Below, piece after piece: positions 9,531 through 61,600 of a stretch of 64,000 bases of DNA. The translations under genes were made by a program, and so were the position numbers. The DNA lies in assembly GCA_028826165.1 (NCBI GenBank), contig JAPDFW010000074.1, positions 1-64,000 of the forward strand, written 5' to 3'. Under the pieces are notes generated by a model. The model did no database searches, was not told where the DNA came from, and saw nothing but the letters and a program-made list of their open reading frames with translations. Source of the stretch: Anaeramoeba ignava BMAN. Taxonomy: Eukaryota; Protista; Anaeramoebae. The number at the start of each line of letters is the position of its first letter. The first letter of the stretch is position 1.

Positions 9531-11869
9531 TTAAAGTTCTTTTTCAGATATTAAATCATATTCAATTTTTGATTGATTTTGTGAATTATTTTGTTTTTGA
9601 TTAAACAAATAAACTCTGCCTTTAAGTGAATTACTTATTGGAGCACTAATTACTAAATAATTATCTGAAATTAAAACAGTAAATCCAAATAAATCATCTT
9701 CTTCTCCATTATTTGAACTTAACATTTGGATTTGATTCCATTTATTTTGATTTTGATTTTTTTGGAAAATATAAACTTTGCCTTGTTTAATATTATTTTG
9801 AAAATCCAAAAGAATAGTTCCAATTAAAAGAATATTCCCATCTTTGGAAATTGAAATACTCTCTCCAAACCAACCATTTTCTTTCCCATCATTTGCAGTT
9901 AAAATTTGGATTTGATTCCATTTATTTTCATTTTCATTTTCATTTTCATTTTTTTGGAAAACATAAACTTTGCCTTGTTCTTTATTATTCCCAACTTTTG
10001 CACCAGAAGCTGAAATTAAAATAATATCCCCATCTTTGGAAATTGAAACACGAAATCCAAATAAATCATTTTCTTTCCCATCATTTGCAGTTAAAATTTG
10101 GATTTGATTCCATTTATTTTCATTTTGATTTTTTTGGAAAATATAAACTTTGCCTTGTTCTTCATTATCTCCAACTTTTGCATAAGGAGCTGAAATTAAA
10201 AAAATATTCTCATCATTGGGAATTGAAATACTCTCTCCAAAATGATCATTTTCTTTCCCATCATTTGCAGTTAATATTTGGATTTGATTCCATTTATTTT
10301 CATTTTGATTTTTTTGGAAAATATAAGCTTTGCCTTGTTTATAATTATCTCCAACTTTTGCATAAGGAGCTCCAATTAAAATAATATCCCCATCTTTGGA
10401 AATTGAAACACTATATCCAAAATGATCATTTTCTTTCCCATAATTTTCAGTTAATATTTGGATTTGATTCCATTTATTTTCATTTTCATTTTTTTGGAAA
10501 ATATAAGCTTTGCCTTGTTCTTCATTATCACCAACTTTTGCATAAGGAGATCCAATTAAAAGAATATTCTCATCATTGGAAATTGAAATACTCTGTCCAA
10601 ACCAATCATATTCTTTCCCATAATTTTCAGTTAATATTTGGATTTGATTCCATTTATTTTCATTTTGATTTTTATTTTCATTTTCATTTTGATTTTTTTG
10701 GAAAATATAAACTTTGCCTTGTTCAATATCGCTGTCAAAATTAAAAAAAGGAGCTCCAATTAAAAGAATATTCTCATCTTTGGAAATTAAAATACTAAAT
10801 CCAAAATGATCATTTTCTTTCCCATAATTTGCAGTTAAAATTTGGATTTTATTCCATTTATTTTCATTTTGATTTTTTTGGAAAATATAAACTTTGCCTT
10901 GTTCTTCATTATTCTCAACTTTTGCATAAGGAGCTCCAATTAAAAGAATATTATCATCTTTGGAAATTGAAATACTCAATCCAAAATGATCATTTTCTTT
11001 CCCATCATTTGCAGTTAACATTTGGATTTGATTCCATTTATTTTCATTTTGATTTTTATTTTTTTGGAAAATATAAACTTTTCCTTGTTTATAATTATCA
11101 CCAAATTTTGCACCAGGAGCTCCAATTAAAAGAATATTCTCATCATTGGAAATTGAAATACTCTCTCCAAAAAAATCATTTTGTTTCCCATCATTTGCAG
11201 TTAATATTTGGATTTGATTCCATTCATTTTCATTTTCATTTTTTTGGAAAATATAAACTTTGCCTTGATTATAATTATCACCAACTTTTGCAAGAGCTGA
11301 AATTAAAATAATATTCTCATCTTTGGAAATTGAAATACTCTCTCCAAAATGATCATTTTGTTTCCCATCATTTGCAGTTAACATTTGGATTTGATTCCAT
11401 TTATTTTGATTTTGATTTTGATTTTTTTGGAAAATATAAGCTTTTCCTTGTTCTTCATTATTCCCAACTTTTGCATAAGGAGCTCCAATTAAAAGAATAT
11501 TATCATCATTGGAAATTGAAATACTCAATCCAAAAAATCATTTTGTTTCCCATCATTTGCAGTTAAAATTTGGATTTGATTCCATTTATTTTCATTTTGA
11601 TTTTTTTGGAAAATATAAACTTTGCCTTGTTCTTCATTATCACCAACTTTTGCATAAGGAGCTCCAATTAAAAGAATATTCTCATCTTTGGAAATTGAAA
11701 TACTCACTCCAAAAAAATCATCTTCTTCTCCATAATTTGAAGTTAATATTTGGATTTGATTCCATTTATTTTCATTTTCATTTTCATTTTTTTGAATTGA
11801 AAAAAGAAAAATTAATAATAAAATTAATAAGAATTGAATAAAGAAAGTTGATTTTTGAATTGTTTTCAT
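9531..11869 (-). CDS. Secretory FG-GAP repeat protein, 12 repeats (copy 2); one frameshift near 11530
   Basis: ORFs 11525-11869 and 9531-11528 join across a T homopolymer (codons for D-F-F-G). Same repeat unit; C-terminus ISEKEL. Confidence 0.82.
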
Positions 11870-12253
11870 TTTGTTTTTAAATTTATTATTATTATTATTA
11901 TTTTAAAAAATTTTGAAAAGAAAAAAATGAAAAAAAAAATGAAAAAAAAATTTATTTTTTTAATTTTTTTAAATTTTGAAATAAAAGATTAAAAATGGAA
12001 AAAAAATTGGAAAAAAATGATAAAAAAAAGTGGAATCTTTTTATTTAAATTTTGTTCTCTTTTGTTTTAATTTTTAATTTTTTAAAATTGAAAAGAAAGA
12101 AAAAAGAAGAAAAAGTGGAATTTTTTTGATAAAGAATTTAAGTAAAAATTTGAATTTGAATTTAAATTTAAATTTGAAAATGGAATTAATAATCTTTTTT
12201 TTCTCTTTAATTTTAAATTGAATTTTAAATTGAATTTTGAATTGAATAATTAT

Positions 12254-13693
12254 TTAAAGTTCTTTTTCAGATTTTAAATCATATTCAATTTTTGATTGAT
12301 TTTGTGAATTATTTTGTTTTTGATTAAACAAATAAACTCTGCCTTTATGTGAATAACTTATTGGAGCACTAATTACTAAATAATTATCTGAAATTAAAAC
12401 AGTAAATCCAAATAAATCATCTTCTTCTCCGTTATTTGAACTTAACATTTGGATTTGATTCCATTGATTTTCATTTTGATTTTGATTTTGATTTTGATTT
12501 TCATTTTGATTTTTTTGGAAAATATAAGCTTTGCCTTGTTTAATATCGCTGTCAAAATTAAAAAGAGGAGCTCCAATTAAAAGAATATTACCATCTTTGG
12601 AAATTGAAACACTAAATCCAAAATGATCATTTTCTTTCCCATAATTTGCAGTTAAAATTTGGATTTGATTCCATTTATTTTCATTTTCATTTTGATTTTT
12701 TTGGAAAATATAAACTTTTCCTTGTTCTTTATTATCTCCAACTTTTGCTCGAGGAGCTCCAATTAAAAGAATATTCTCATCTTTGGAAATTGAAATACTC
12801 ACTCCAAAAAAATCATTTTCTTTCCCATCATTTGCAGTTAACATTTGGATTTGATTCCATTCATTTTCATTTTCATTTTGATTTTTTTGGAAAATATAAA
12901 CTTTTCCTTGTTCTTCATTATCTCCAACTTTTGCACCAGGAGCTCCAATTAAAAGAATATTCTCATCTTTGGAAATTGAAATACTCACTCCGAATCCATC
13001 ATATTGTTTCCCATCATTTGCAGTTAACATTTGGATTTGATTCCATTCATTTTCATTTTGATTTTTTTGGAAAATATAAACTTTTCCTTGTTCTTTATTA
13101 TCTCCAACTTTTGCACCAGGAGCTCCAATTAAAAGAATATTCTCATCTTTGGAAATTGAAATACTAAATCCAAAATAATCATTTTCTTTCCCATCATTTG
13201 CAGTTAAAATTTGGATTTGATTCCATTTATTTTCATTTTCATTTTTTTGGAAAATATAAACTTTTCCTTGTTCTTTATTATCACCAACTTTTGCATAAGG
13301 AGCTCCAATTAAAAGAATATTATTATCTTTGGAAATTGAAATACTAAATCCAAAATTATCATTTTCTTTCCCATCATTTGCAGTTAACATTTGGATTTGA
13401 TTCCATTCATTTTCATTTTGATTTTCATTTTGATTTTTTTGGAAAATATAAACTTTGCCTTGTTCTTCATTATCCTCAAATATTGGACCAGGAGCTCCAA
13501 TTAAAAGAATATTCTCATCTTTGGAAATTGAAATACTAAATCCAAAATGATCATTTTGTTTCCAATCATTTGCAGTTAACATTTGGATTTGATTCCATTT
13601 ATTTTCATTTTCATTTTTTTGAATTGAAAAAAGAAAAATTAATAATAAAATTAAGAATTGAATAAAGAAAGTTGATTTTTGAATTGTTTTCAT
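12254..13693 (-). CDS. Secretory FG-GAP repeat beta-propeller protein, 7 repeats (copy 3)
   Basis: Intact ORF with the same leader, repeats and KSEKEL terminus. Confidence 0.85.
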   Translation of the reverse strand: MKTIQKSTFFIQFLILLLIFLFSIQKNENENKWNQIQMLTANDWKQNDHFGFSISISKDENILLIGAPGPIFEDNEEQGKVYIFQKNQNENQNENEWNQIQMLTANDGKENDNFGFSISISKDNNILLIGAPYAKVGDNKEQGKVYIFQKNENENKWNQIQILTANDGKENDYFGFSISISKDENILLIGAPGAKVGDNKEQGKVYIFQKNQNENEWNQIQMLTANDGKQYDGFGVSISISKDENILLIGAPGAKVGDNEEQGKVYIFQKNQNENENEWNQIQMLTANDGKENDFFGVSISISKDENILLIGAPRAKVGDNKEQGKVYIFQKNQNENENKWNQIQILTANYGKENDHFGFSVSISKDGNILLIGAPLFNFDSDIKQGKAYIFQKNQNENQNQNQNQNENQWNQIQMLSSNNGEEDDLFGFTVLISDNYLVISAPISYSHKGRVYLFNQKQNNSQNQSKIEYDLKSEKEL

Positions 13694-14458
13694 TTTGTTT
13701 TTAAATTTATTATTATTATTTTTAAAAAAATTTGAAAAGAAAAAAATGAAAAAAAAAAAGGAAAAAAAAATTTATTTTTAAATTCAAAAAAAGGAAAAAA
13801 AAAAAGGAAAAAAAAAAGGAAAAAAGAAAAAGGAAAAAAAAAGTGGAATCTTTTTATTTAGATTTTGTTCTCTTTTGTTTTAATTTTTAATTTTTAATTT
13901 TTTAAAAAAAAAGAAAAAGAAAAAAAAAGAAAAAGTGGAATTTTTTTGATAAAGAATTTAAGTAAAAATTTGAATTTGGATTTGAATTTGAATTTAAATC
14001 TAATTTGGAAATGGAATTAATAATCTTTTTTTTCTCTTTAATTTTGAATTTTATTTTGAATTGAATTTTGAATATTTATTTAAAGAGATTAAATTTATAA
14101 ATAATTTCAAAAAAAAAAATTCTAAAATTTGTTTTCAATTCAATTCATTTTTTGGATTCATTTTTTGTAAATTTTGGAAATAAAATTTGAATGAAGAAAT
14201 AAAATAAAACAAATTTCAATTTAATTTGAAAAAGTAAATACAATTTATTATTGAAATTTTGTTTTTTAAAAAAATATAAAATTTTTCAAATTATTTTTAT
14301 TTAAAATAATAAATAAATAATTTTATTTAAATTAAAATAAATAATATTTCCAAATTATTTTTAAATTAAAACGATTAAAATTTAAAAAATAATTTAAATT
14401 AAATTTTTTCATTTTTTTTTTCATTTTTTCTTTTTTCTTTTTTAATAAAAAAACAAAA

Positions 14459-20999: not shown

Positions 21000-23900
21000 T
21001 TAAATCATTTCAATTCCTCCTGATTGTTGAAGCTCTTTTTCTTTTTTTTTGATTATACTTTTAATACTCTTTTTTTGTTTCTTCATCAAAACAACAACAA
21101 CAATAATTGCTGCAATAACAACAACTGGAATAACAATTCCCATAACAATTATTGGTGTTTTTGATGAACTAGCACTTGTTTGAGTTGGAATAGAAGGCAC
21201 GAGTGAGGTTGTTGAATTAATTCCTGAATATTCACTTCCAAGACAATTTTCATCAGCTGATGCAACAACCCAAATAGTATATTCTTCTTCTCCATTTAAT
21301 CCTGAGGCTGAATAAAAAGTTGTAGATTTGGGTAAACAGATAGAAACTATTCCATAACGAAATGAATATCTGGCCAATCCAGATGATAAAATCAATGCAT
21401 CCCAAGTGCAAACAAATCCATAATTTATTGAATAACAATTTAATGAAGTAATATTTCCTAATATCACTCTTGTTGAAGTTATTGAACTTGGCAATCCGAA
21501 ATATTGAGGTTCACAATCTGAATCTACACATCCTCGAATTGAAATATTATATTGAACATTCCCTGCTATTTCACTTAATGTTCCAATTACTTCATTTCCA
21601 CTTAAATCAAGAGATGTGAAATTTTGCCAATTTGTTCCATTATCAAGTGAAATTGAATAATTATTAGCATTTGATACTTTTGTGAAATTTAATTCAATTT
21701 CTTCAATTTTGGGAATTGTTTCATAAATTGTTGGAACTTCTAAATTAGAAGTTGTAATTGAAGTTGTTGAGTTAATTCCTGAATATTCACTTCCAAGACA
21801 ATTTTCATCAGCTGATGAATAAACTGAAATTTCATAATATTCTTCGGGAAGTAACAAGGAAATTGAAACACTTGTTGTTAAATTTGTTAAACAAATTGTA
21901 GTTGAATTGTAATTGAATGAATATGCTTGTAATCCAGATGATAAAACCAATGCATCCCAATTACATTCAAACCCAAAAGGTAATGCTGAACAATTTAATG
22001 AAGTAATATTTCCTAATATCACTCTTGTTGAAGTTATTGAACTTGGCAATCCGAAATATTGAGGTTCACAATCTGAATCTACACATCCTCGAATTGAAAT
22101 ATTATATTGAACATTCCCTGCTATTTCACTTAATGTTCCAATTACTTCATTTCCACTTAAATCAAGAGATGTGAAATTTTGCCAATTTGTTCCATTATCA
22201 AGTGAAATTGAATAATTATTAGCATTTGATACTTTTGTGAAATTAAATTCAATTTCTTCAATTTTGGGAATTGTTTCATAAATTGTTGGAGCAATTAAGT
22301 TCCCAGTTGTAATTGAAGTTGTTGTAATGTCTCCACAATTACCATTTGAAGGACATGCTGAAACATTGATTTGATATTCTTGATTTGGGAATTGAGCTTT
22401 GAAATGTTGATTTGTTGAATTTGATTGATAATTTCCTGAATCATCTTGAGAAATTGCTTGATAAGTAAAATTATAATAATCTGGGATTGAACAATTAATT
22501 GGTTGATCCCAACTACAATCAATATCTAATAAATTTGAAATTGAACATGAAAGATTTGGAACTTGGGCAAAAAGTATTGAAATTGATGATTCACAAACTT
22601 CTCCTTTATCATCTCCTTCGCACTCCAATGTTCTACATCCCCAAATTGAAATATTATAATCATATCCACAGTTTATATTCTCCAAAAGATATGAAAGTGA
22701 AGAATTATCAACTGAAAAGAAAGATATTGAATCAGGATCAGATTGATTAAAATAAGAAAGATTATAATGATCAAGATGAGCAACTCCTTCATCAACTTGT
22801 ACATTTGGATAATCCCAATTAGCATTAATTGAATAATCTGAAGGATTTGATAATTGGAAATCTTTTACAGAATCAATTCTTGTTGTTAAATTAATGGAAG
22901 AAGAAGGTTCACCACAGCTCATTGTTTCATTATAACAAGCTCGAATTTGAATTGAATAATATTCATTTCCAGTAATATTATCATAAATGGAAGAATTAAA
23001 TTGTTGATAATAAACATTCCCATCTTCAAGAATTGGAGAATCGATATCAATCCAATCATATCCATAATTAATTTGATATTTCAAAGTTGGAGGAATTTCA
23101 GTTTCATCCCAATAGCAATCAAATGATGAAAAAAAAGATGAGCAATTAAGAATATTAACTTGAGGAATGAGATAATGTTGATAAATAAATCCTTGTTCTC
23201 CATGTTGAGATCCAATAGCAGTAAAATTCTTATAAATTGAAACAGAATATCCAAAATCGGTAACAGAAGATTGAGTGAAAACTTGTACTTCATTCCAAAA
23301 TGTTCCATTATATCTGTAAATGAATCCTTGTTTTGTGTCAATAGCTCCAACAACAAGAGAATCATTATAAACTGAAAGACTCCATCCAAAACTTGAAGAT
23401 CCAGGTCCATTGATAATTTGTTCTTGATTCCAATATGTTTCATTGTATCTGTAAATATATGCTTGTTTTGGACCAGCAGCTCCAATAGCAAGTGCATTTC
23501 CATAAACTGAAACAGAATGACCAAACCAGGATAGTGCTACACTGAAACTTTGCTCTTCATTCCAAAATGTTCCATTATATCTATAAACAAATGCTTGACT
23601 TGTTTGATAAGTTCCTACAGCAATAACATCATCATAAACTGAAACACTCGATCCAAAATTTGTGACTGATTTCGTAATAATTTGTTCTTGATTCCAAAAT
23701 GTTCCATTATATCTATAAACAAATACTCGAGTGTCAGCATAAGTTCCAACAACAGTAACATTTTCATAAATTGAAACAAAATATCCAAATTGTCCAGCAA
23801 CTTGAGAGATCATTTGTTCTTCATTCCAATAAGTTCCATTATATCTGTAAACATCTACTTTATATGCATCCAATCGGTTTCCAATAACAAGAGCATCTTT

Positions 23901-24248
23901 ATAAACTGAAACACTCCATCCAAAATGAGTGCCTGGCTGATAGATATTTTGTTCCAGCTCAAAATTTGTTCCATTATATCTGTAAACAAATACTTGAGCT
24001 ACACCCTCAGCTCCAATAACAAGAACATCTTCATAAACTGAAACAGAGTTTCCAAAATATCCTGAACCTGAATAGTTGTTTATTAAACTCCAAAACCAGC
24101 CTTCGTCTGGAGTAGAATAATATCTTGTTGTTCCTATTTCTGCTTGTATTGTTGATATTAATGATGAAATGGATTTTGGTTGAGTTTGGATTGATTGAAT
24201 TAAGAAAATATTTATAATTAAGAAGAAAAAGAAAATATTTGATTTCAT
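21000..24248 (-). CDS. Type I membrane protein: FG-GAP-like beta-propeller, fibronectin-III-like repeats, TM helix, short basic tail
   Basis: Signal peptide; about 7 FG.SVSVY...IGA...YRYNGT.W repeats; FN3-like W...Y...Y.I.(I/V)R(A/G)C modules; TM IIVMGIVIPVVVIAAIIVVVVLM. Confidence 0.8.
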   Translation of the reverse strand: MKSNIFFFFLIINIFLIQSIQTQPKSISSLISTIQAEIGTTRYYSTPDEGWFWSLINNYSGSGYFGNSVSVYEDVLVIGAEGVAQVFVYRYNGTNFELEQNIYQPGTHFGWSVSVYKDALVIGNRLDAYKVDVYRYNGTYWNEEQMISQVAGQFGYFVSIYENVTVVGTYADTRVFVYRYNGTFWNQEQIITKSVTNFGSSVSVYDDVIAVGTYQTSQAFVYRYNGTFWNEEQSFSVALSWFGHSVSVYGNALAIGAAGPKQAYIYRYNETYWNQEQIINGPGSSSFGWSLSVYNDSLVVGAIDTKQGFIYRYNGTFWNEVQVFTQSSVTDFGYSVSIYKNFTAIGSQHGEQGFIYQHYLIPQVNILNCSSFFSSFDCYWDETEIPPTLKYQINYGYDWIDIDSPILEDGNVYYQQFNSSIYDNITGNEYYSIQIRACYNETMSCGEPSSSINLTTRIDSVKDFQLSNPSDYSINANWDYPNVQVDEGVAHLDHYNLSYFNQSDPDSISFFSVDNSSLSYLLENINCGYDYNISIWGCRTLECEGDDKGEVCESSISILFAQVPNLSCSISNLLDIDCSWDQPINCSIPDYYNFTYQAISQDDSGNYQSNSTNQHFKAQFPNQEYQINVSACPSNGNCGDITTTSITTGNLIAPTIYETIPKIEEIEFNFTKVSNANNYSISLDNGTNWQNFTSLDLSGNEVIGTLSEIAGNVQYNISIRGCVDSDCEPQYFGLPSSITSTRVILGNITSLNCSALPFGFECNWDALVLSSGLQAYSFNYNSTTICLTNLTTSVSISLLLPEEYYEISVYSSADENCLGSEYSGINSTTSITTSNLEVPTIYETIPKIEEIELNFTKVSNANNYSISLDNGTNWQNFTSLDLSGNEVIGTLSEIAGNVQYNISIRGCVDSDCEPQYFGLPSSITSTRVILGNITSLNCYSINYGFVCTWDALILSSGLARYSFRYGIVSICLPKSTTFYSASGLNGEEEYTIWVVASADENCLGSEYSGINSTTSLVPSIPTQTSASSSKTPIIVMGIVIPVVVIAAIIVVVVLMKKQKKSIKSIIKKKEKELQQSGGIEMI

Positions 24249-24839
24249 TTGCTTTTTTTAAAAGAAAAAAAAATTTATTTTTAGTTAATTCATTTTGTTT
24301 TAGGGGGCATAATTTAATAAATAATAAATAATAAAATTTTTCTTACTTTGGTTTTTGTGTTTTTGTGTTTTTTTGTTTTTTTTGGATTTGGTTCTTTTAA
24401 TAACCTAAAAAAGAATTAAAAAGAATTAAAAAGAATTAAAATTAGAAATAAGCAAAATTGATCAATTTTTGTTTTTCTTTATTTAAACTGAAAAATACTT
24501 TATTTATTTCAAAACAAAAAGATCCTAAAAAAAAAAAAAAAAAGAAAAAATGATCGATTTTTATTCTTTTTCAAACTTGATATTTTTCTTAATTTTTTTT
24601 GGTTGAATTAAATAAAAAAGAATAAACAAAACAAAAAATTTTTTTCTTTAATTAAAATTAAAAATAAAAAATAAAAATAAAAATCTTCTCTCATTTTTAA
24701 AAGCTTTGTGTTGTTTTATTTCTTCTTTTATTTCTTCTTTTAAAAATTCTTGTCATTTAAGTTTTTTTTATTTAATTAATCTTAATTCCCAAACTTGATC
24801 ATTTTTCTTAATTATTTTCTTTTTAAAAAAACAAATTTA

Positions 24840-25498: not shown

Positions 25499-26625
25499 AT
25501 GGATCTTGATATACAAGCATTTGTAATTGATAATGGATCTGGTATGACAAAAATAGGATTTGCAGGAGATGATGCACCAAGAGCAATTTTCCCATCAATT
25601 GTTGAAAGACCAAGATATACAGGAATTATGATGGGAATGGACATGAGAATAAGTAAATATGTAGGAGAAGAAGCACAATCCAAAAGGGGAATATTAACAT
25701 TAAAATATCCAATAGAACGAGGAATAGTAACAAATTGGGATGATATGGAAAAATTATGGCATCATGCATTTTATAATGAAGTAAAAGTAGCACCTGAAGA
25801 ACATCCAATTTTATTAACTGAAGTTCCATTTAATCCAAAAAACAGAGAGAAAACAACTCAAATAATGTTTGAAACATTTAACATTCCAGCTTTTTATCTT
25901 GCAAATCAATCAGTTTTATCACTTTATGCTTCAGGAATATTAACAGGAATAGTTATTGAATCTGGTGATGGTGTTTCTCATATTGTCCCTATTTATGAAG
26001 GATATACTTTACCTCATGCAATTATGAGAATTGATTTGGCAGGAAGAGATTTGACTGATTATTTAATGAAAATTTTAACAGAAAGAGGATATTCATTTAC
26101 AACAAGTGCTGAAAGAGAAATTGTTAGAGATATCAAAGAAAAACTTTGTTATGTTGCTTTTGATTTTGATGAAGAAATGATCATTTCAAATAAATCTTCT
26201 TCTATTGAGAAAGATTATGAATTACCTGATGGACAAGTTATCACAATTGGAAATGAAAGATTTAGATGTCCAGAAGTTTTGTTTCAACCTTCTTTCTTTG
26301 GAATGGAGCAAAAGGTGTTCATCAAATAACTTATAATTCAATTCTAAAATGTGATAATGATATCAGAAAAGATCTTTATGCAAATATTGTTTTATCAGGT
26401 GGTTCAACAATGTTTCCTGGAATTGAAGAAAGAATTCAAAGAGAAATTAATCAATTAGCTCCTCCTGATATTAATGTTCGTGTTATTGATCCTCCTGAAA
26501 GAAAATATTCTGTTTGGATTGGAGGATCTATTTTGGCTTCTCTTTCTACTTTCCAAAATATGTGGATTTCAAAAGAAGAATATGAAGAATCTGGACCTTT
26601 AATTATTCATAGAAAATGTTTTTGA
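25499..26625 (+). CDS. ACT: Divergent actin paralog (1-nt frameshift near 26312)
   Basis: [60 protein letters not shown], then [12 protein letters not shown]...[14 protein letters not shown]...IIHRKCF in the adjacent frame. Confidence 0.9.
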
Positions 26626-26659
26626 AATCAAAAAATTTTTTCATTTTTTTCATTTCAAA

Positions 26660-27385
26660 ATGGAAAATTATTTAAATTTAGAAAAACTTTCAAATGATTT
26701 AAAAAATTTATTTCAAAATCAAAATCAAAATGAAAATCAAAATCAAAATGAAAGTTATTTTGATTTTCAAATAATTTGTGAACAAAATAAAACTTCATTT
26801 AAAACTCATAAATCAATTCTTTCATCAAGAAGTCAATATTTTAAATCTCTTTTTAATTCAAAAATGAAAGAATATCAAGAAAATAAATTAATTCTAAAAG
26901 ATGTTTCAAGTTCAATTCTATCTTCAATTTTGAATTATTTTTATTCAGGAAAAATTGAAATTAATTTAGAAAATGCAATTCAAATTTTAATTTTTTCATC
27001 AAAATATTTAATTGATGAATTAATTCAATTTTCATCAAATTTTATCAAAAAGAATTTACAATTTGAAACTATTATTGATATTCTTAAATTATCTGAATCA
27101 ATGAACTTAAATCAATTAACAGATTCTTGTTATAAATTTATTTCACAAAATTTTGAAGAATTTTCTAAAACTTCATTTTTTCTTGAACTTGAAGAAAATC
27201 ATTTAAATTCAATTTTATCAAATGATGAAATTCCAATAAATGAATTTGAACTTTTTCAAATGATCAAAAAAAAAAGAAATGCAAAATTATTTTGTGATTT
27301 TTTTTCTTTCTTAATTTGGATTTCAAAAAAAATGTTAAAACTGAATCAAATTTCTGATTATTTGTGTTGGGTTTGGAGAATTTGA
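26660..27385 (+). pseudogene. 3'-truncated duplicate of the BTB-BACK-TLDc gene at 35470
   Basis: Near-identical to 35470-36070 up to INEFELFQ (~27260), then runs into unrelated sequence (the 3' flank of the convergent gene). TLDc is absent. Confidence 0.7.
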
Positions 27386-27386
27386 T

Positions 27387-30300
27387 TTAATTCATTCTAA
27401 ATTGAGGATCATAAATTTCTTCATATAATTCATTCGCTAAATCTGCTAAATTTGGGTTTGATTGATTAAATTGAAAATAATCAATTGCTTTATCTAATTC
27501 TTTAATTGTTTCTTTTGTAATTTCAATTCCTTCTTGAATTTGATTTGAATAAACCCAATATTTCAAAATTTGGAATGCTTGATCACTTATTCCACTCAAA
27601 TCGGAAACTTTATTTGAGGTATCATTTGTTACTGTCAAAAACATGGATCTGAATAAATCACTTCTGGCTATCAAAATTAATTTATGGAATTTGATTTCTT
27701 CTGCATTTTTCTCAATAATGAAATCTTTGGTCGATTCATCATAATACATTTCTTCCATCGTTTCTCCTATTGATTCATATAAATTAAATTCGAATTGAAC
27801 TTCTTCTTTTAATTTTTGTGATTCAATTTTGATATTTCCGTAGATTAATTCAAATATTTGATTAGCTTCTTCAAAGGTTTTTTTTGAAATTAATTGTTTA
27901 AATTCTTCCATTTGACTCCCAATTCTGAAATAAACAATTAATTTATGTGCTTCAATCATTTCTCCATTAACTGTAGGAAAAGAAATATCACAAAATTCTT
28001 TCCTTCTGTAAAATTCAATTAGATCTTCTTCAAGACTTGAATAAAAAGATGAATAAAGAAACGAGGCTTCATTTCCACAATAAATATGGTAATTGGATAT
28101 ATCATATAATATTTCTGGAAGGTCAATATAAAATATTGTAAATTGAAATTTATTTAGTGTTTTTTTGATTGGATGCTTTACACTTTCTCCAAATCCGAGC
28201 AGCTTTCCATTTGTTGTTAATACTAATGTATGATATCGCCCCACTGAAATGGTATCAATATCATTATTTTCAAATAAGGGATATTTCAATTCAGTAAATT
28301 CTCTTGTAAGTTTTTTATTTTTTTGTCCAAGTCCATTGCACATATAATGGCCGCATGAATATAATTTTCTTTTTTGATTTTCATCTTCAATCAGCATAAT
28401 TGAATGAAATATCCCCATTTGAATATCAATTATTTTTCCTTTCGGGATATTTTTAACTTGTAATAGTTGTGTGATTTTTGATACTTCTCTTATTCCTAAT
28501 CCAAGTTGTCCGAAATCATTAGATCCACATGAAAACAATTCATGATTTAAAGTTGTAAGAAAAACCCCTTCTGAATTACTTCCTGAAAATATTTTAGAAA
28601 CATTTCTCATCATTAAAATGGGAATTGGTGTTTTTTTCAATTTGAAATAATCATATCCAAGTTGTCCAAATTGGTTTGAACCCATTCCAAGAGCATTTTC
28701 ATTTGAACTTAATAAATAAACAGAATCTTTTCCACAAACAATGTCTTTGATCATTCTATCATTTGAATCTTGAATTAGCGATGAAACATTACTAAATTTA
28801 TTTGGATTTGTGGATTTGATTTCTTTCCCTTTCACATATACATCGCCTTCCAAAGTTAAAATTGATTCGATATATCCTCCAACAGTGACTTTTTTGATTT
28901 CAATCCCTTTTTTAATTTCAATTTTTTGTATTTTTTCATTTTCATTTTCTCTTTTTGAATCTATCAACTTTGAATTTAATTGTTCAAATAATTCTCCATT
29001 TTGATAAAGGAAATTTTTGAAACGAGTTGAAGTATTGATTTGTTTAATTTGAAATTCATTTCGATTTTCATTTTCATTTTCATTTTCATTTTCATTTTGA
29101 GGTTGAGATTCAATTGGTTCCATTCTAATCTTTTGAAAAGGATTAAAAATGTTTGAAGGAAACATTGTGATATCAAATTGCCAAATATCATTTGGTTTTT
29201 CTTTTAATTTTTCTATTATTTTTTTTCAAAAAAAATTTCAAGTGATTAAGAGGTGATTTGATAGAAAAAAGATTTTTTTGGTTATATTTTGAATTTACCC
29301 TTTTTCAATTTTTTGATTCTTTCGATCCAAATATCAATTTTTGACGGAAAACTTGGAAGATCAAAAAATCGAGATTCGTATTGTTTCAGTTGTTCAATCG
29401 CCTCAAATCCTTTAGCTTTAATTAATTCAATTTGATTCTCTAGTGTTAATTTCAGTTTTTTTTTTCATCCCAAATTACTTCTCTTTGATTCTGTAATTTT
29501 TTATTTTTTTTTGAATTGATTACCATCTGAAAGACTAATATTCATTAGCGCTCGGAATCCAACCCTTTGGATTTGGATGGCACCTGGGAAATTATCCATT
29601 GATTTTATTATTGTTTCAATTCCTTTTTGTGTTCGAATTTCAATTTTCTTTTCTAAATTTTTTTTTGAAAGAAATCCTCATGATAATTCAATTTTCTTAT
29701 GTTTTTTGCTCGAAAAAAATCTTTTTACCTTCATGAGAAGAAGAATAATGAAATAAAGCTAAACATCCAGAACGTTGAATATCTTGATCAATTGGGAAAT
29801 TATTCATTGATTTGATAATAGTTTGAATTCCTTTTAATTTTCCAATTTCATCCCTATTTTCTGTTTTTATTTTGATTTTATTATTTATTACACAAAAAAA
29901 AAGGAAATTAAATCAAAATCAATTTTAAGTTTTGTTGAAATATAATTTTGAAATTTGAAATTTTGTTTTCATTAAAATTTACCTTCATTATAAACAGAAA
30001 TATTTGCTAAAGCTGAGCATCCATATTTTTGAATATCTTGATCGATTGGGAAATTATTCATTGATTTGATAATAATTTCAATTCCTTTTAATTTTACAGC
30101 TTCATTTACATTTCCTGATTTTATTTTGATTTTATTATTTATTACACAAAAAAAAAGGAAATTAAATCAAAATCAATTTTAAGTTTTGTTGAAATATAAT
30201 TTTGAGATTTGAAATTTTCTTTTCATTAAAATTTACCTTCATTATAAGCAGAAATGATCGCTAAAGTTAAACATCCATATTTTTGAATATCTTGATTAAT

Positions 30301-33300
30301 TGGGAAATTATTCATTGATTTGATAATAATTTCAATTCCTTTTAATTTTCCAATTTCATTTACATTTTCTGATTTATATTTTGATTTTATTATTTATTAC
30401 ACAAAAAAAAGGAAATTAAATCAAAATCAATTTTAAGTTTTTTTGAAATATAATTTTGAAATTTGAAATTTTCTTTTTATTAAAATTTACCTTCATTATG
30501 AGCAGAAATATTTGCTAAAGCTAAGCATCCAGAATGTTGAATATCTTGATTAATTGGGAAATTATTCATTAATTTGATAATAATTTCAATTCCTTTTAAT
30601 TTCCTAATTTCATTTTGATTTTCTGTTTTTATTTTTATTTTATTATTTATTACACAAAAAAAAGGAAATTAAATCAAAATCAATTTTAAGTTTTGTTGAA
30701 ATATAATTTTGAAATTTGAAATTTTCTTTTTATTAAAATTTACCTTCATTATTGTGAGCAATATTCCCTAAAGCTCCTGATCCATATTTTTGAATATCTT
30801 GATTAATTGGGAAATCATTCATTGATTTGATAATAATTTCAATCCCTTTTAATTTTCCAATTTCATTCGTATTTTCTGTTTTTATTTTGATTTTATTATT
30901 TATTACACAAAAAAAAAAGGAAATTAAATCAAAATCAATTTTAAGTTTTGTTGAAATATAATTTTGAAATTTGAAATTTTCTTTTCATTAAAATTTACCT
31001 TCATTATAAGCAGAAATGATCGCTAAAGTTAAACATCCATATTTTTGAATATCTTGATTAATTGAGAAATCATTCATTAATTTGATAATAATTTCAATTC
31101 CTTTTAATTTCCTAATTTCATTTTGATTTTCTGTTTTTATTTTGATTTTATTATTTATTACACAAAAAAAAGGAAATTAAATCAAAATAATTAGTTTTTT
31201 TGAAATGAAATTTTGAAATTTGAAATTTTGTTTTCATTAAAATTTACCTTCATTGTTGTCAGCAATATTTGCTAAAGCTAAGCATACATATTTTTGAATA
31301 TCTTGATTAATTGGGAAATTATTCATTAATTTGATAATAATTTCAATTCCTTTTAATTTCCTAATTTCATTTTGATTTTCTGTTTTTATTTTGATTTTAT
31401 TATTTATTACACAAAAAAAAGGAAATTAAATCAAAATTAATTAATTTTGAAATGAAATTTTGAAATTTGAAATTTTGTTTTCATTAAAATTTACCTTCAT
31501 TGTTGTGAGCAATATTTGCTAAAGCTGAACATCCAAAATGTTGAATATCTTGATCAATTGGGAAATTATTCATTGATTTAATAACAATTTCAATCCCTTT
31601 TAATTTCCTAATTTCATTTGCATTTTCTGATTTATTTTGATTTTATTATTTATTACACAAAAAAAAAAGGAAATTAAATCAAAATCAATTTTAAGTTTTG
31701 TTGAAATATAATTTTGAAATTTGAAATTTTGTTTTCATTAAAATTTACCTTCATTATAAGTAGAAATAATTGCTAAAGTTAAACATCCATATTTTTGAAT
31801 AATTTGATTAATTGGGAAATTATTCATTGATTTGATAATAGTTTGAATTCCTCTTAATTTTACAATTTCATTTACATTTTCTGATTTATTTTTATTTTAT
31901 TATTTATTACACAAAAAAAAGGAAATTAAATCAAAGTTAATTATTTTTGAAATGAAATTTTGAAATATGAAATTTTGTTTTCAATAAAATTTACCTTCAT
32001 TATGAGTAGAAATAATCGCTAAAGCTGAACATCCATTTTGTTGAATACCTTGATTGATTGGGAAATTATTCATTGATTTGATAATAATTTCAATCCCTCT
32101 TGATTTTACAGTTTCATTTACATTTTCTGTTTTTATTTTGATTTTATTATTTATTACACAAAAAAAAGGAAATTAAATCAAAGTTAATTATTTTTGAAAT
32201 GAAATTTTGAAATTTGAAATTTTGTTTTCATTAAAATTTACCTTTATTATGAGTAGAAGCAATCGCTAAAGTTAAACATCCATATTTTTGAATATCTTGA
32301 TTAATTGGAAAATCATTCATTGATTTGATAATAGTTTGAATTCCTTTTAATTTTCCAATTTCATTCCTATTTTCTGTTATTTTGATTTTATTATTTATTA
32401 CACAAAAAAAAGGAAATTAAATCAAAATTAATTAATTTTGAAATGAAATTTTGAAATCTTTTTATTATTGTTTTATTTTCAATAAAATTTACCTTCATTG
32501 TTGTCAGAAATATTCCCTAAAGCTAAACATCCATTTTGTTGGATATCTTGATTGATTGGGAAATCATTCATTGATTTAATAATAATTTCAATCCCTTTTA
32601 ATTTCCTAATCTCATTTTTATTTTCTGATTTATTTTGATTTTATTATTTATTACAAAAAAAAGGAAATTAAATCAAAGTTAATTAATTTTGAAATGAAAT
32701 TTTGAAATCTTTTTATTGTTTTATTTTCATTAAAATTTACCTTGATTATTATGAGCAATATTCCCTAAAGCTGAACATCCAAAATGTTGAATATCTTGAT
32801 TAATTGGGAAATCATTCATTAATTTGATAATAATTTCAATTCCTTTTAATTTCCTAATTTCGTTTACATTTTCTGATTTATTTTGATTTTATTATTTATT
32901 ACACAAAAAAAAGGAAATTAAATAAAAGTTAATTAATTTTGAAATATTTTTATTATTGTTTTATTTTCAATAAAATTTACCTTCATTGTTGTCAGAAATA
33001 TTCCCTAAAGCTGAACATCCATTTTGTTGAATACCTTGATTATTTGGGAAATTATTCATTGATTTAATAACAATTTCAATCCCTTTTAATTTCCTAATCT
33101 CATTTTTATTTTCTGATTTATTTTGATTTTATTATTTATTACAAAAAAAAAAGGAAATTAAATCAAAGTTAATTAATTTTGAAATGAAATTTTGAAATCT
33201 TTTTATTGTTTTGTTTTCAATAAAATTTACCTTGATTATTATGAGCAATATATCCTAAAGCTGAACATCCATTTTGTTGAATAGTGTGATTATTTGGGAA

Positions 33301-35406
33301 ATTATTCATTGATTTGATAATAACCCCAATCCCTTTTAATTTCCTAATCTCATTTTTATTTTCTGATTTATTTTGATTTTATTATTTATTACACAAAAAA
33401 AAGGAAATTAAATCAAAATTAATTAATTTTGAAATGAAATTTTGAAATCTTTTTATTATTGTTTTATTTTCAATAAAATTTACCTTGATTATTATGAGCA
33501 ATATTCCCTAAAGCTGAACATCCAAAATATTGAATAGTGTGATTATTTGGGAAATTAGTCATTGATTTGATAATAACCCCAATCCCTTTTAATTTCCTAA
33601 TCTCATTTTGATTTTCTGATTTATTTTGATTTTATTATTTATTACACAAAAAAAAAAGGAAATTAAATCAAAGTTAATTAATTTTGAAATGAAATTTTGA
33701 AATCTTTTTATTGTTTTGTTTTCAATAAAATTTACCTTGATTATTATGAGCAATATATCCTAAAGCTCCACATCCATTTTGTTGAATATCTTGATTATTT
33801 GAGAAATTATTCATTGATTTAATAACAATTTCAATCCCTTTTAATTTCCCTATTTCATTCGTATTTTCTGATTTATTTTGATTTTATTATTTATTACACA
33901 AAAAAAAAAGGAAATTAAATCAAAGTTAATTAATTTTGAAATGAAATTTTGAAATCTTTTTATTGTTTTGTTTTCAATAAAATTTACCTTGATTATTATG
34001 AGCAATATTCCCTAAAGCTGAACATCCAAAATATTGAATAGTGTGATTATTTGGGAAATTAGTCATTGATTTGATAATAACCCCAATCCCTTCTGATTTC
34101 CTAATCTCATTTTGATTTTCTGATTTATTTTGATTTTATTATTTATTACACAAAAAAAAAGGAAATTAAATAAAAGTTAATTATTTTTGAAATGAAATTT
34201 TGAAATCTTTTTATTGTTTTATTTTCATTAAAATTTACCTTGATTTGTAGATAGACGCCCTAAAGTTAAACATCCATTTTGTTGAATACCTTGATTGATT
34301 GGAAAATTAATCATTGATTTAATAATAACCCCAATCCCTTCTGATTTCCTAATCTCATTTTGATTTTCTGATTTTGTTTTTATTTTATTATTATTAGAAA
34401 CCAAAAAGGAAAAAGAACCAAAATTAATGGATTTTGAAATCTGGAATTTTGTTGTTTTGTTTTTCTCAATAAAATTTACCTTTATTATCTTGACAAATAT
34501 TTACTAAAGCTGCACATCCATTATGTTGAACAATTTGGTTAATTGGAAAATTAATCATTGATTTGATAATAACTTCAATCCCTTTTAATTTCCTAATCTC
34601 ATTTTGATTTTCTGATTTTGTTTTTATTTTTTATTATTAGAAACCAAAAAGGAAAAAGAACCAAAATTAATGGATTTTGAAATCTGGAATTTTGTTGTTT
34701 TGTTTTTCTCAATAAAATTTACCTTTATTATCTTGCGCAAAAACAGCTAAATTTGCACATCCAGTAAATTGTATATCTTGATTATTTGGAAAATTAACCA
34801 TTGATTTGATAATAACTTCAATCCCTTTTAATTTCCTAATCTCATTTTGATTTTCTGATTTTATTTTTATTTTTTATTATTGCAAACCAAAAAGGAAATA
34901 TATGTTTAATCTGTTTTCGAATTATTTTGAGAAGCAAAAAAATACTCTCGTTTCTGGCAATCATTCCTAAGGCGATAGATCCATTGAATTGAATCTTTGC
35001 ATTATTCGGGAAATTATTTATGGCAGAAATAATGGATTGAATCTCATCCGAATTGAATTGAAGAAGGGGTAATAATTCTGTTGATTTTGTTTGAAAAAGA
35101 ATTTAAATCCAAAAAAAAATATTTGTCACTATTACAAATTAATTTGGAAATTTACGTCCATTTTGGAAAAATTTGTTGTGTAATTCATCGATTGTTTCCT
35201 CAACTATTTCTTCTTCTTTTGGGGCAATTTTCAGGAGATTTATTAATTCTTTTATTTCAGAATTCACTATCAATTAAAAATTTCGTTCAAAAAGAAAAGC
35301 GTTAGAAAAAAATATTTTAATTTAAATAATTGTTGAATTTGATTTTGGGTTTACCTGGATTTTCTGAATTTAAAACAGAGAGAAGATGAGCTAAATCAAT
35401 ATTCAT
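27387..35406 (-). CDS. 27-exon armadillo-like repeat + RCC1 + BTB-BTB protein (~1,700 aa); one ARM-like repeat per exon
   Basis: Exons: 35406-35355 (MNIDLAHLLSVLNSENP), 35266-35156, 35077-34946; then 21 repeat exons from 34854-34723 down to 29860-29729; cap exon 29652-29524; linker exon 29439-29299; last exon 29212-27387, which continues into the RCC1 (GSNQFGQLG, GSNDFGQLG, SVGRYHTL) and BTB (FCDISF..EAHKLI; DFII..FHKLILIARSDLFRSMF) ORF. All introns are GT-AG and phase 1, and the frame stays open throughout. Confidence 0.85.
29729..34854 (-). repeat. 21 tandem ~250-bp units, each a 132-nt exon (one is 129 nt) plus a ~110-125-nt intron
   Basis: Donors AAG|GTAAATTT and acceptors (A/T)CAG|(A/G)AAAT recur about every 250 nt; exon boundaries were checked for every unit. 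Confidence 0.92.
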
Positions 35407-35469
35407 GTAGCTTTTTAATTCAAAAGCGAAAAAAATGAAAAAAAATTTTTTCATTTTTTTCATTTCAAA
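35407..35469. promoter_or_regulatory. 63-nt bidirectional promoter region with back-to-back TCATTT initiator-like motifs
   Basis: Divergent ATGs at 35406 (-) and 35470 (+). The spacer contains AAAAATGAAAAAAAATTTTTTCATTTTT, an imperfect palindrome of the motif found upstream of most genes here. Confidence 0.55.
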
Positions 35470-36914
35470 ATGGAAAATTATTCAAATTTAGAAAAACTTT
35501 CAAATGATTTAAAAAATTTATTTCAAAATCAAAATCAAAATGAAAATCAAAATGAAAATGAAAGTTATTTTGATTTTCAAATAATTTGTGAACAAAATAA
35601 AACTTCATTTAAAACTCATAAATCAATTCTTTCTTCAAGAAGTCAATATTTTAAATCTCTTTTTAAAACTAAAATGAAAGAATATCAAGAAAATAAATTA
35701 ATTCTAAAAGATGTTTCAAGTTCAATTCTATCTTCAATTTTGAATTATTTTTATTCAGGAAAAATTGAAATTAATTTAGAAAATGCAATTCAAATTTTAA
35801 TTTTTTCATCAAAATATTTAATTGATGAATTAATTCAATTTTCATCAAATTTTATCAAAAAGAATTTACAATTTGAAACTATTATTGATATTCTTAAATT
35901 ATCTGAATCAATGAACTTAAATCAATTATTAGATTCTTGTTATAAATTTATTTCACAAAATTTTGAAGAATTTTCTAAAACTTCATTTTTTCTTGAACTT
36001 GAAGAAAATCATTTAAATTCAATATTATCAAATGATGAAATTCCAATAAATGAATTTGAACTTTTTCAATCAATAATAAAATGGGGAAAATATAAATCAA
36101 ATATTAATCAAGAAATGAATAAAAAAGAAAAAGAAAAATTACAAAAACAAATTTCAAATATTATCAATAAAATCAGATTTATTCATTTTTCAGAACAAGA
36201 ATTTGAAGATATTTTGAAAGAAGATTTAATTCCAAAACAAATTTCAGAAAAATTAACTCAATTCCAAAAACTTCAAAAACAAAATGATGAAAAAGAATTA
36301 AATCAATTCATTGAAAAAGAAAATCAAAATTCATTAATTTTCAAAACAAGATTTAGATTAGATTCAGAAATTATACAAGAAAAAGAACATTCCAAGAAAT
36401 TAAAAGAATGGATAAATGATAATGAATTCTTTTCCAAAATGAAAAAAGGATATTCAGCAAAAGAGATGGATTTAATTGTAAAAAATGGCATGATAAAGTT
36501 GATAATAAAGGAAAAACATTAGTTATTATCAAAACCAAAGATAATTTTATTTTTGGAGGATTTACTCAAATTGGATGGATTTCAGGAAAAGATGGAGAAC
36601 ATATTGAAGATTCAAATGCATTTATTTTTTCATTAAGAAATGATAAGAATGATAGAAAACCAGAGAAATTTTTCATTAGAAAAGGGAAAGAAAAATATGC
36701 AATTCAATATTTTTCATCAATATGGGGTCCAGTTTTTGGAAAAAATGGACTTGATTTTTGTATTGGAATTAATTTACAACCTGGTGATGCAACTTTTGGT
36801 CGGAGTTACAATTTGCCTAAAGGAATTCATTATGATACAGATGAAGCTAAAAATTATTTGGCTGGTTCTCTTAGTGAATGGGTTGTTGATGAACTTGAGA
36901 CTTATTTTATTTAA
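35470..36914 (+). CDS. BTB-BACK-TLDc protein (1-nt frameshift near 36460)
   Basis: BTB (DFQIIC..FKTHKSILSSRSQYFKSLF) and BACK (NEFELFQSIIKW). After the frameshift, TLDc motifs follow (DGFNCKKWHDKVDNKGKTLVIIKT..IFGGFT...AFIFSL...GPVFG...VDELETYFI, stop at 36914). Confidence 0.85.
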
Positions 36915-49783: not shown

Positions 49784-50927
<1,144 letters not shown>

Positions 50928-51149
50928 TTAAAATTGTTTTTGTTTTTGTTTTTGTTTTTTAAAAAAGTAAAAAAGAAAAAAGAAATGAAAAAATAAAAAA
51001 ATTTTTTTTCTTTTTTAAATTAATTTTAATGATGATTCATTGTATTAAAAATGATAATAATGATTTATTATTGATTTTTAATTAAATTTTAATTAAATTA
51101 CAATTAAATTACAATTAAAATTAAATTATTTTTTTTTCCGATTTAAATT

Positions 51150-51450
51150 TTAATTAAATTTTAATTAGATTTTAATTAGATTTTAATTAGATTTTATTTA
51201 AATTTTAATTAGATTTTAATTAGATTTTAATTAGATTTTAATTAAATTTAAATTAGATTTTAATTAGATTTTAATTAAATTTTAATTAGATTTTAATTAG
51301 ATTTTAATTTAATTTTTTAAATTAGATTTTAATTAAATTTTAATTAGATTTTAATTAGATTTTAATTAAATTTAATTATATTTTAATTAGATTTTAATTA
51401 GATTTTTTAATTAAATTTTAATTAGATTTTAATTAGATTTTAATTAAATT
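51150..51450. repeat. 11-nt tandem repeat (AGATTTTAATT)n upstream of polyubiquitin; also at 58150-58410
   Basis: Seen directly. Confidence 0.8.
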
Positions 51451-51664
51451 ATTTTTTTTTCCGATTTAATTTTTTTTAAATTTAAATAATAAAAAAAATA
51501 ATTAATAACTTATAAAATCTAAAATAAAATTTAAAAGAAATAATAATAATAATATTATATTTGTTTTGATTATTTCCTTAAAAAGAAAAAAAATTGATTT
51601 ATTAAATTTTTTTGGAATTAATTAAAATAAAAAATATTCCAAAAAAAAAAGCAAATAAAAAGAG

Positions 51665-53085
51665 AAATTGAATTTGGAATTGATATTGAATTTGAAATTT
51701 AATATTGAATTTGAAATTGAAATTGAAATTGAATTTAATATTGATATTGAATTTGAAATTGAATTTAATATTGAATTTGAATTTGATATTGAATTTGATA
51801 TTGAATTTGATATTGAATTTGATATTTAATTTAATATTGAATTTGAAATTGAATTTGAAATTGAATTTGATATTGAAATTGAATTTGAATTTGAAATTTA
51901 ATTTAAAATTGAAATTAATATTGAAATTGATATTGAAATTGATATTGAATTTGATATTGAATTTAATATTAATATTTGAATTTGATATTGAATTTGATAT
52001 GAAATTTAATATTGAATTTAATATTGAATTTGATATTGAATTTGATATTGAATTTGATATTGAATTTGATATTGAATTTGATATTGAATTTGATATTGAA
52101 TTTAATATTGAATTTAATATTGAATTTGATATTGAATTTGATATTGAATTTGATATTGAATTTGATATTGAATTTGATATTGAATTTGAAATTGAATTTA
52201 ATATTGAAATTGATATTGAATTTGATATTGAATTTAATATTGAATTTAATATTGAAATTGATATTTAATTTGATATTGAATTTGATATTGAATTTAATAT
52301 TTAATTTAATATTGAATTTGATATTGAATTTAATATTTAATTTAATATTGAATTTGATATTGAATTTAATATTTAATTTAATATTGAATTTGAATTTGAA
52401 ATTGAATTTGATATTGAATTTAATATTTAATTTAATATTGAATTTGAATTTGAAATTGAATTTGATATTGAATTTAATATTTAATTTGATATTGAATTTG
52501 ATATTGAATTTAATATTGAATTTGATATTGAATTTGATATTGAATTTGAATTTAATTTAATATTGAATTTGAATTTGAAATTGAATTTGATATTGAATTT
52601 AATATTTAATTTAATATTGAATTTGAAATTGAATTTGATATTGAATTTAATATTTAATTTGATATTGAATTTAATATTGAATTTGATATTGAATTTGATA
52701 TTGAATTTGATATTGAATTTGATATTGAATTTGATATTGAATTTAATATTGAATTTGAAATTGAATTTGATATTGAATTTAATATTGAATTTAATATTGA
52801 ATTTGATATTGAATTTGATATTGAATTTAATATTGAATTTGATATTGAATTTAATATTGAATTTGAAATTGATATTGAATTTGAAATTGAATTTGATATT
52901 GAAATTGAAATTGAATTTGATATTGAATTTGATATTGAATTTAATATTGAATTTGATATTGAATTTGAAATTGAATTTGATATTGAATTTGATATTGAAT
53001 TTGAATTTGAATTTGATATTGAATTTGAAATTGAATTTGATATTGAATTTAATATTGAATTTGAAATTGAATTTGATATTGGATT
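51665..53085. repeat. ~1.4 kb (ATTGAATTTGAT)-type 12-mer/hexamer microsatellite
   Basis: Seen directly; it produces the LNLI/EFDI ORFs. Confidence 0.9.
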
Positions 53086-53091
53086 TCATAT

Positions 53092-53490: not shown

Positions 53491-53725
53491 TTTTGTTTGT
53501 TTTTTGTTTATTTTTGTTTATTTTTGATTTTTGTTGGAATTGTTGTTTGTTAAAAAAGAAAAAAATGAAAAAAAATGAAAAAAGTTTTGTTTTGTTTTTT
53601 AATTTTGAAATTAAATTGAATTGTTAAAGTTTTTTTTTGTGTTATTGATTTGAATAAAAATATAAGAAAACAAAAGTAAAATTTTTTTTCCGAATTTTTT
53701 TTTTTGGAAAATGAATTTAATTAAT

Positions 53726-56330: not shown

Positions 56331-57929
<1,599 letters not shown>

Positions 57930-60228: not shown

Positions 60229-61600
<1,372 letters not shown>

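Follow-up and report, generated by a model that had tools for sequence, protein, structure and literature searches.

The 64,000-nucleotide stretch analyzed here (the window; positions 1 to 64,000 of contig JAPDFW010000074.1, assembly GCA_028826165.1) comes from the free-living anaerobic amoeba Anaeramoeba ignava BMAN and carries, on its minus strand, a 27-exon gene in the order ARM(23)-RCC1-BTB, that is, 23 armadillo (ARM) repeats followed by an RCC1 propeller and a BTB region. A first-pass annotation, made from the sequence alone, had described 21 ARM-like exons at 34854-29729, and all 21 are confirmed, each preceded by AG, followed by GT, in phase 1 and part of one open spliced frame. Twenty of them measure 132 nt and one 129 nt (starts 34854, 34611, 34367, 34119, 33867, 33615, 33362, 33112, 32872, 32624, 32373, 32126, 31880, 31626, 31379, 31130, 30875, 30622, 30368, 30114 and 29860), and each encodes a single 43-44-residue repeat of the LRRK2/aardvark type. 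The array introns are GT-AG, 108-123 nt long and homogenized. They are closer to each other than synonymous exon sites are (relative rate 0.45). Their acceptors are rich in A and not in pyrimidines, and their subtypes are linked to position along the array; these introns may provide the homology for exon exchange.

The complete spliced frame spans 1719 amino acids with a single stop and no internal one. Upstream of the array lie exon 1 (35406-35355; 52 nt with the ATG and a phase-1 donor), exon 2 (35266-35156; 111 nt, the N-terminal segment) and exon 3 (35077-34946; 132 nt), which holds a divergent first ARM repeat or N-cap. Downstream follow exon 25 (29652-29524; 129 nt), a divergent last ARM repeat, and exon 26 (29439-29299), a C-cap or linker with a phase-1 donor. 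The last exon, 27 (29212-27387), contains an RCC1-like beta-propeller at about 28952-28176 and a C-terminal BTB region whose best Pfam stretch lies at about 27737-27462. Its Pfam matches are WD40_RLD (8.9e-33), RCC1 (3.6e-15) and BTB (7e-13), and weak matches to ARM_LRRK2 are found in 21 of the 23 single ARM exons. No NACHT, NB-ARC or ROC-COR domain was found in the 27-exon gene or in the 38 of 76 flanking frames that were scanned.

Splicing is supported by short contigs from X3 and X4, runs from two studies whose library type is not on record and which are taken as transcript-derived solely from their GT-AG joints. Among the matches listed, exact CT..AC joints are present at 9 of the 26 predicted introns: 35266-35355 and 35077-35156 in X3; 32872-32981, 32126-32242, 30875-30999 and 29860-29983 between adjacent array exons in X3/X4; and 29652-29729, 29439-29524 and 29212-29299 in both runs. 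The last of these, with a side of 99 nt and an open frame, joins the ARM array to the RCC1 exon, and a stand-alone ARM gene ending by intron read-through at 29282 was dropped because spliced contigs connect 29299 to 29212. Four non-adjacent exon joints, which would imply exon skipping, were rejected as mapping ambiguities because the identical exon ends are longer than the matched sides: 66, 32 and 105 nt against sides of 31, 25 and 36, and, in the fourth case, an identity between repeats 1 and 6 that covers unit columns 2-37 against a side of 30. Among the differences listed for five A. ignava runs compared with the region, no substitution falls within the array exons, which gives no indication that the variants are assembly errors.

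A family of ARM arrays

The first-pass annotation overlooked both the RCC1-BTB fusion and a genome-wide family to which the array belongs, and these are the source of its functional context. Specifically, a 23-letter pattern from the constant part of the repeat has 338 matches in the genome and its reversed control none, and the repeat itself finds A. ignava 'aardvark' proteins as its best database matches. A hidden Markov model (HMM) of the repeat, run on 35 stretches and the window, gave 579 hits, of which 427 passed an exon filter (AG..GT, phase 1, 126-135 nt and a helix-3 anchor motif that limits positions 32-33). Keeping runs of at least six exons, with divergent caps removed, left 350 repeats in 30 arrays; the window contributed 20 of these repeats. 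For 228 of the 350 repeats the nearest exon lies in the same array.

The partner domains of these arrays vary. At 15 of the 33 loci with ARM exons, the flanking frames scanned include a same-strand BTB frame that ends 26-1076 nt before the array, an adjacency in the genomic sequence; an RCC1 frame lies directly downstream at three loci and a Ras-like frame upstream at one. Public gene models comprise BTB-ARM proteins (P0003 and P0014, the latter from a transcriptome), ARM-RCC1-BTB proteins (P0004, P0005 and P0068), RING-kinase-SH3-ARM proteins (P0001 and P0002) and ARM-Ras proteins (P0042 and P0044). P0004 shares the domain order of the window gene and is 69% identical to it over RCC1-BTB, and its own ARM repeats are mutually unlike, from which the window array looks recently re-expanded.

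On the minus strand of contig C35, two loci (L035 and L027; G000:C35:140000-159999) hold 80 ARM exon hits, which cap exons divide into about five or more genes. No BTB frame is seen between the arrays of this tandem cluster, and several of its exons are apparently frameshifted; loci L034 and L036 gave no ARM hits. P0007 and P0013, two metagenome proteins from another eukaryote, carry BTB together with ARM repeats whose variable helix-3 positions are the same, and by their sequences the strategy is not confined to A. ignava. In the public gene models P0066, P0071, P0070 and P0062-P0065 the RCC1-BTB module is also found on LRR arrays, on an FG-GAP/fibronectin protein and with other domains, which suggests a wider mix-and-match adaptor system, some of these joins being perhaps annotation fusions. 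The literature searched, which excluded subscription journals and the supplements of the genome papers, contains no description of the A. ignava ARM family.

Variation on one face of helix 3

Within the window repeats, mean amino-acid heterozygosity rises from 0.22 at positions 11-25 to 0.49 at positions 30-44 and 0.73 at seven face positions (30, 31, 34, 37, 38, 41 and 42; a six-position set includes the face codons up to 41). In repeat 4, as an example, these codons occupy 33995-34033 on the minus strand, a placement drawn from entropy, alignment to the engineered armadillo 4rv1 and site-wise omega. Variation is thus concentrated in the last helix, as the first-pass annotation had claimed, but not evenly so: positions 28, 29, 32, 33 and 36, which lie between the face sites, are almost fixed, and high variability extends to position 3 (in helix 1) and to position 27. 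The variability within helix 3 peaks at a 102-degree period, that is, on one helical face. All eight dipeptides named earlier occur at positions 30-31 (KY in seven repeats, QN in six, YF and HF in two each, and FT, HN, HS and RS in one each), as do the six mosaic words. The blocks that had been listed exist, but the vocabulary is larger than described, with 6 states at positions 34-35, 8 at 37-38, 12 at 40-43, and 17 distinct words at 30-38 among 21 repeats.

The same pattern recurs across the family. The variability profile of the window array is correlated (Spearman 0.80) with the profile of the 29 paralog arrays, in every one of which the face varies more than the outer surface. Aromatic residues make up 19.5% of the face against 0.3% of the outer surface, and tryptophan alone accounts for 6.7% of the face, the genome being very rich in AT. 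The net charge of the face (+5.4%) is similar to that of the outer surface (+4.4%), and since the face is no more basic, a nucleic-acid groove is not favored.

Profile comparisons place the repeat close to known armadillo folds, with matches to 4rv1 (E 2.7e-20) and LRRK2 (E 1.7e-8), and the alignment to 4rv1 sets positions 30, 31 and 34 against pocket-forming sites. We take positions 30, 31, 34, 37, 38, 41 and 42 to correspond to armadillo positions 29, 30, 33, 36, 37, 40 and 41, and the conserved helix-3 asparagine to be the backbone-binding residue at armadillo position 37. In designed armadillo repeat proteins (dArmRP), residues 29, 30 and 33 make the selected side-chain pocket and helix 3 takes part in adjacent pockets (PMC11228518).

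A structural framework comes from an AlphaFold model of the paralog P0068, which served as a stand-in for the window gene, for which no public protein model was found. It consists of three-helix (H1-H2-H3) ARM repeats with a predicted local distance difference test (pLDDT) score of 96-99, in which helix 3 spans repeat positions 26-40. The model matches 4rv1 (Z 34.0, root-mean-square deviation (rmsd) 3.4, 402 aligned residues) and the peptide-bound designed armadillo 6s9p (Z 29.8, rmsd 4.4, 321 aligned), as well as importin-alpha, Vac8 and beta-catenin; the Foldseek listing is dominated by the RCC1 domain. Profiles and paralog model together describe a tandem alpha-solenoid of three-helix repeats of about 42-44 residues, as in LRRK2/aardvark-type ARM proteins. 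The variable face is predicted, from the alignment and the paralog fold, to line the concave groove, so that the proposal of a variable groove face holds at the level of prediction, the variable positions being assigned neither to the buried core nor to the outer surface. The accompanying assumption of a conserved asparagine did not survive: unlike in canonical peptide-binding armadillos such as importin-alpha and dArmRP, which carry it in each repeat, the residue at repeat position 38 is kept in only 11 of the 21 window repeats, and in 251 of 330 paralog repeats.

Recombination and selection

The presumed gene conversion within the array is borne out. Using our own implementations of the pairwise homoplasy index (PHI), the codon model and the site models, PHI on repeats 1-20 gave p=0.0001 for exons and p=0.0005-0.001 for introns alone, the intron value being possibly inflated by one badly aligned block. 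With a 100-site window PHI was not significant (p=0.19), which fits short tracts. Identity runs at p<=0.01 occur in 35 of 190 repeat pairs, and individual segments disagree on their relatives: repeats 15 and 18 are identical in helices 1-2 and have different nearest neighbors in helix 3, for repeats 16 and 19 the identity is confined to helix 3, and repeats 4 and 5 have identical introns and 26 differences in the unit. For four of the six pairs of amino-acid blocks every tree needs additional steps, and for four the number of combinations falls short of what free shuffling would give (p<0.05). As such, the amino-acid blocks have been recombined, though not freely. The high internal identity, concerted evolution and recombination known from diversifying repeat receptors are all found here. 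The X3 and X4 contigs gave no evidence of somatic rearrangement or exon skipping and are too short to exclude either.

Nonsynonymous change on the face exceeds neutral intron divergence, as had been anticipated. Between adjacent window repeats, the proportion of nonsynonymous differences (pN) is 0.365 on the face and 0.079 on the outer surface, against an intron p-distance of 0.051, and first and second positions of the six face codons differ at 0.41 compared with 0.09 at synonymous third positions. The ratio of nonsynonymous to synonymous rates (dN/dS, omega) of the window face was estimated at 1.4-5.3 and was significant in five of eight fits and in two of four free-branch fits. Six-position heterozygosity on the face reaches 0.74, compared with at most 0.57 in 96 simulations combining a neutral face with gene conversion, and none of these 96 simulations under window settings yielded a significant omega.

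The family provides the firmer result. Face omega exceeds 1 in 30 of 30 arrays and is significant in 23 (twice the log-likelihood difference, 2dL, above 3.84), with medians across arrays of 3.3-3.5 for the face, 0.6 for the outer surface, 0.4 for the interleaved helix-3 positions and 0.2 for the core. Neutral simulations of matched arrays gave 1 significant result in 360, with 7-15 of 30 arrays above 1 per round, and the test detected 19 of 24 cases at a true omega of 3. A pooled site-wise test on 27 paralog arrays, from which the window and two arrays with degenerate dS were excluded, returned omega values of 2-4 (2dL 25-172) at positions 3, 30, 31, 34, 37 and 41; positions 27 and 40 were marginal and position 38 was not above 1. 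These data show diversifying selection on one helix face throughout the family. Positive selection on the ligand face, as in diversifying repeat receptors, is therefore found family-wide, while the dN/dS evidence for the window gene alone is suggestive only.

A putative Cullin-3 adaptor

BTB and a domain of the substrate-binding type stand in one polypeptide, the BTB region being matched at 7e-13 and the ARM joint being present in two runs. ZYG11B/ZER1, plant ARIA and IBTK/RCBTB are comparable proteins, and the order of RCC1 followed by BTB is that of RCBTB and IBTK. A tested case is ARMC5, a CUL3 adaptor that carries an ARM substrate arm and a CUL3-binding BTB domain and so parallels the A. 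ignava layout (PMC9462479). A Cullin-3 gene is present in the genome (Anaeramoeba Cullin-3 protein P0082): the Cullin frame of locus L048, which is 100% identical to an A. ignava protein, matches human Cullin-3 best, at 428 bits against 363 for Cullin-4B. The predicted complex between the BTB region and the Cullin-3 N-terminus scored 0.54, which lies in the weak-support range, against 0.00 for the best of three controls; runs agreed in at least 48% of contacts, partner pLDDT was at least 78, and like complexes have already been solved. On this model the BTB region is tentatively predicted to bind Cullin-3.

On the opposite strand, the ARM gene has a BTB-BACK gene on either side (26603-27385 and 35419-36914, plus). 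The two are near-identical, and in the assembly each looks truncated or broken in frame; the second runs on in another frame into a part that is TLDc-like by motif.

Other repeat and ubiquitin genes lie elsewhere in the window. On the minus strand at 7759-13771, tandem genes encode near-identical 60-residue repeats with a 180-nt period in long, intron-free frames. By motif we take these repeats to be FG-GAP-like, and the genes, apparently secreted or membrane-bound, are a second candidate for repeat diversification. At 21000-24257, also on the minus strand, a surface protein of 1085 residues, which has repeats of 44 residues (132 nt) along with fibronectin-like domains and one transmembrane segment, resembles the N-terminal part of P0070 in its layout. 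A polyubiquitin gene cluster at 49784-61600 is interspersed with divergent ubiquitin-like proteins with cysteine-rich (CaaX-like) tails.

Discussion

The available data are best explained by a model in which the repeats of this ARM(23)-RCC1-BTB protein are homogenized and recombined within the array while their predicted groove face diversifies, and in which the array probably provides variable substrate recognition for a Cullin-3 ubiquitin ligase. New combinations of groove residues would arise as near-identical exon-intron units undergo unequal crossing-over and short-tract gene conversion, selection would retain new binding surfaces, and captured proteins would be ubiquitinated and subsequently degraded. 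Specificity would arise from a surface that spans neighboring repeats, much like a paratope, rather than from a cipher of two residues per repeat. The driver would most likely be conflict with foreign proteins, whether of symbionts, prey bacteria, viruses or selfish elements, because Anaeramoeba house bacterial symbionts (10.64898/2026.04.11.717937) and by analogy with the fast-evolving F-box adaptors of nematodes (PMC8665587).

Several observations weigh against this reading. On none of three trees did a window site model that had no preset classes reach significance (2dL 0.1-3.4), so that positive selection in the window gene alone is suggestive and not robust. The face class was chosen after the window entropy was known, which leaves the paralogs as the only nearly independent test, and the set of 30 arrays includes some that nearly duplicate each other or represent two halves of a single gene. 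In 10 of 21 repeats the backbone-binding asparagine is missing, and canonical extended-peptide binding may therefore fail along part of the array. The score of the Cullin-3 complex falls in a range whose passes are frequently wrong, since interface scores of 0.60 or below were held by 5 of 78 solved complexes and by all four mismatches that passed. Finally, family members carry RING-kinase-SH3 or Ras-like domains or apparently no partner domain at all, which implies that ubiquitination is not the sole output of the family.

These varied partners also favor the best-surviving alternative, in which the array is a diversifying binder with an endogenous or signaling role (self/non-self recognition between cells, symbiosome trafficking or a sensor kinase) and BTB serves oligomerization. 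Arrays on kinase-SH3-RING and Ras-like proteins, clusters with no effector frame nearby and the weakness of the Cullin-3 model all speak for such a role. We nonetheless regard it as unlikely, given that BTB is the partner domain found most often (15 of 33 loci) and that RING is likewise a domain of ubiquitin ligases. Furthermore, an omega above 1 repeated over many paralogs usually marks conflict.

The first-pass annotation had loosely likened the variable residues to the code of TALE or PPR repeats. Under such a code every repeat would recognize a single unit of a linear ligand, a peptide residue pair or a nucleotide, through a small fixed set of residues. This idea draws on real features, namely one repeat per exon, a constant scaffold with variable pocket positions and the recurrence of KY in 26 paralog repeats, and designed armadillos do bind peptides modularly (PMC11228518). 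The family-wide repertoire argues otherwise: 71 dipeptides occur at positions 30-31 among 350 repeats, the four commonest covering 34%, and 235 of the 282 six-residue combinations are seen only once. Six of the eight window dipeptides, QN and YF among them, are absent from the 330 paralog repeats, and at least seven positions vary per repeat. Moreover, adjacent repeats share pockets in designed armadillos (PMC11228518), and the charge of the face does not exceed that of the outer surface. A code of this kind is thus very unlikely, and the small local vocabulary is explained by shared ancestry and concerted evolution within one array.

Relaxed constraint, that is, neutral drift of surface residues in a recently amplified repeat with gene conversion mimicking combinatorics, appears equally improbable. 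It would account for the partly non-significant window-only tests and for the 152 of 579 HMM hits that failed the canonical-exon filter, some of them apparently frameshifted, and the lower divergence of introns than of synonymous sites means that introns possibly understate the neutral rate. Against it, the equally exposed outer surface evolves at an omega of about 0.6 and is the less variable side in every paralog array, and the excess at first and second face codon positions is measured against synonymous sites rather than introns. Simulations with a neutral face reached neither the observed heterozygosity (0.26 against 0.62) nor the observed omega values, and the tryptophan content of the face runs counter to the AT-richness of the genome. 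Least credible is somatic or splice-level diversification of the Dscam or VLR type, with the exons as a selectively used cassette pool: all exons are phase 1-1 and any could be skipped in frame, but 21 of 21 are intact and in frame, and identical exon ends account for each of the four non-adjacent joints that had hinted at it.

A variable Cullin-3 recognition arm, as proposed here, has partial parallels in several known systems. In Ectocarpus, ROCO LRR and NB-ARC-TPR genes likewise encode each repeat in its own exon, with shuffling of these exons and diversifying selection at the ligand face, and are candidates for a defense role (PMC3341825), while the A. ignava gene has ARM instead of LRR or TPR repeats and BTB/RCC1 instead of ROC-COR or NB-ARC, with no scattered or inverted spare exons seen in the window gene. 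Fungal NLRs of the HET-E type, with WD40, TPR or ANK repeats, share near-identical repeats, concerted evolution and selected concave-face sites (PMC4986451), whereas the A. ignava gene lacks NACHT or NB-ARC and gives each ARM repeat its own exon. The Tetrahymena LRR genes with 90-bp exons similarly form a large protist family of tandem one-repeat exons in a single intron phase, which grew by unequal crossing-over; they number thousands (PMC6564038), in contrast to the dozens of arrays with phase-1 ARM exons of 129/132 nt seen here.

Among ubiquitin-ligase adaptors, the F-box and MATH-BTB families of nematodes and plants are expanded, with selection on the substrate-binding part and a proposed targeting of foreign proteins (PMC8665587), while in A. 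ignava diversity comes from repeat exons shuffled inside one gene. ARMC5 differs from the A. ignava family as a conserved single gene (PMC9462479), and adaptors of its type are conserved and low-copy, with divergent repeats and fixed substrates. Designed armadillos have the same constant scaffold with variation at pocket positions (PMC11228518), as opposed to the natural 43-44-residue LRRK2-type repeats of A. ignava, in which the asparagine is not fixed and a modular peptide code is not shown.

A bolder proposal is that the family is the natural counterpart of designed armadillo libraries, with germline ARM modules whose pocket residues could be assigned to peptide residues, and with Cullin-3 adaptors, put together from these modules by recombination, that mark foreign proteins (of symbionts, prey or viruses) for destruction. 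We consider this quite unlikely; if true, a unicellular eukaryote would possess a programmable, antibody-like intracellular ubiquitin system with hundreds of exon-encoded ARM modules.

Intracellular non-self recognition in single-celled eukaryotes is a largely open question, and here dozens of arrays in a deep-branching, symbiont-housing amoeba vary at the very positions that protein engineers randomize, the arrays most often lying beside, or being fused to, a putative Cullin-3 adaptor domain. Taken together, the findings unite the shuffling of repeat exons with the rapid evolution of ubiquitin-ligase adaptors, in a class of repeat that is new to this combination, and they yield testable proteins, both as natural armadillo pocket variants and as components of a candidate pathway of defense or symbiont control.

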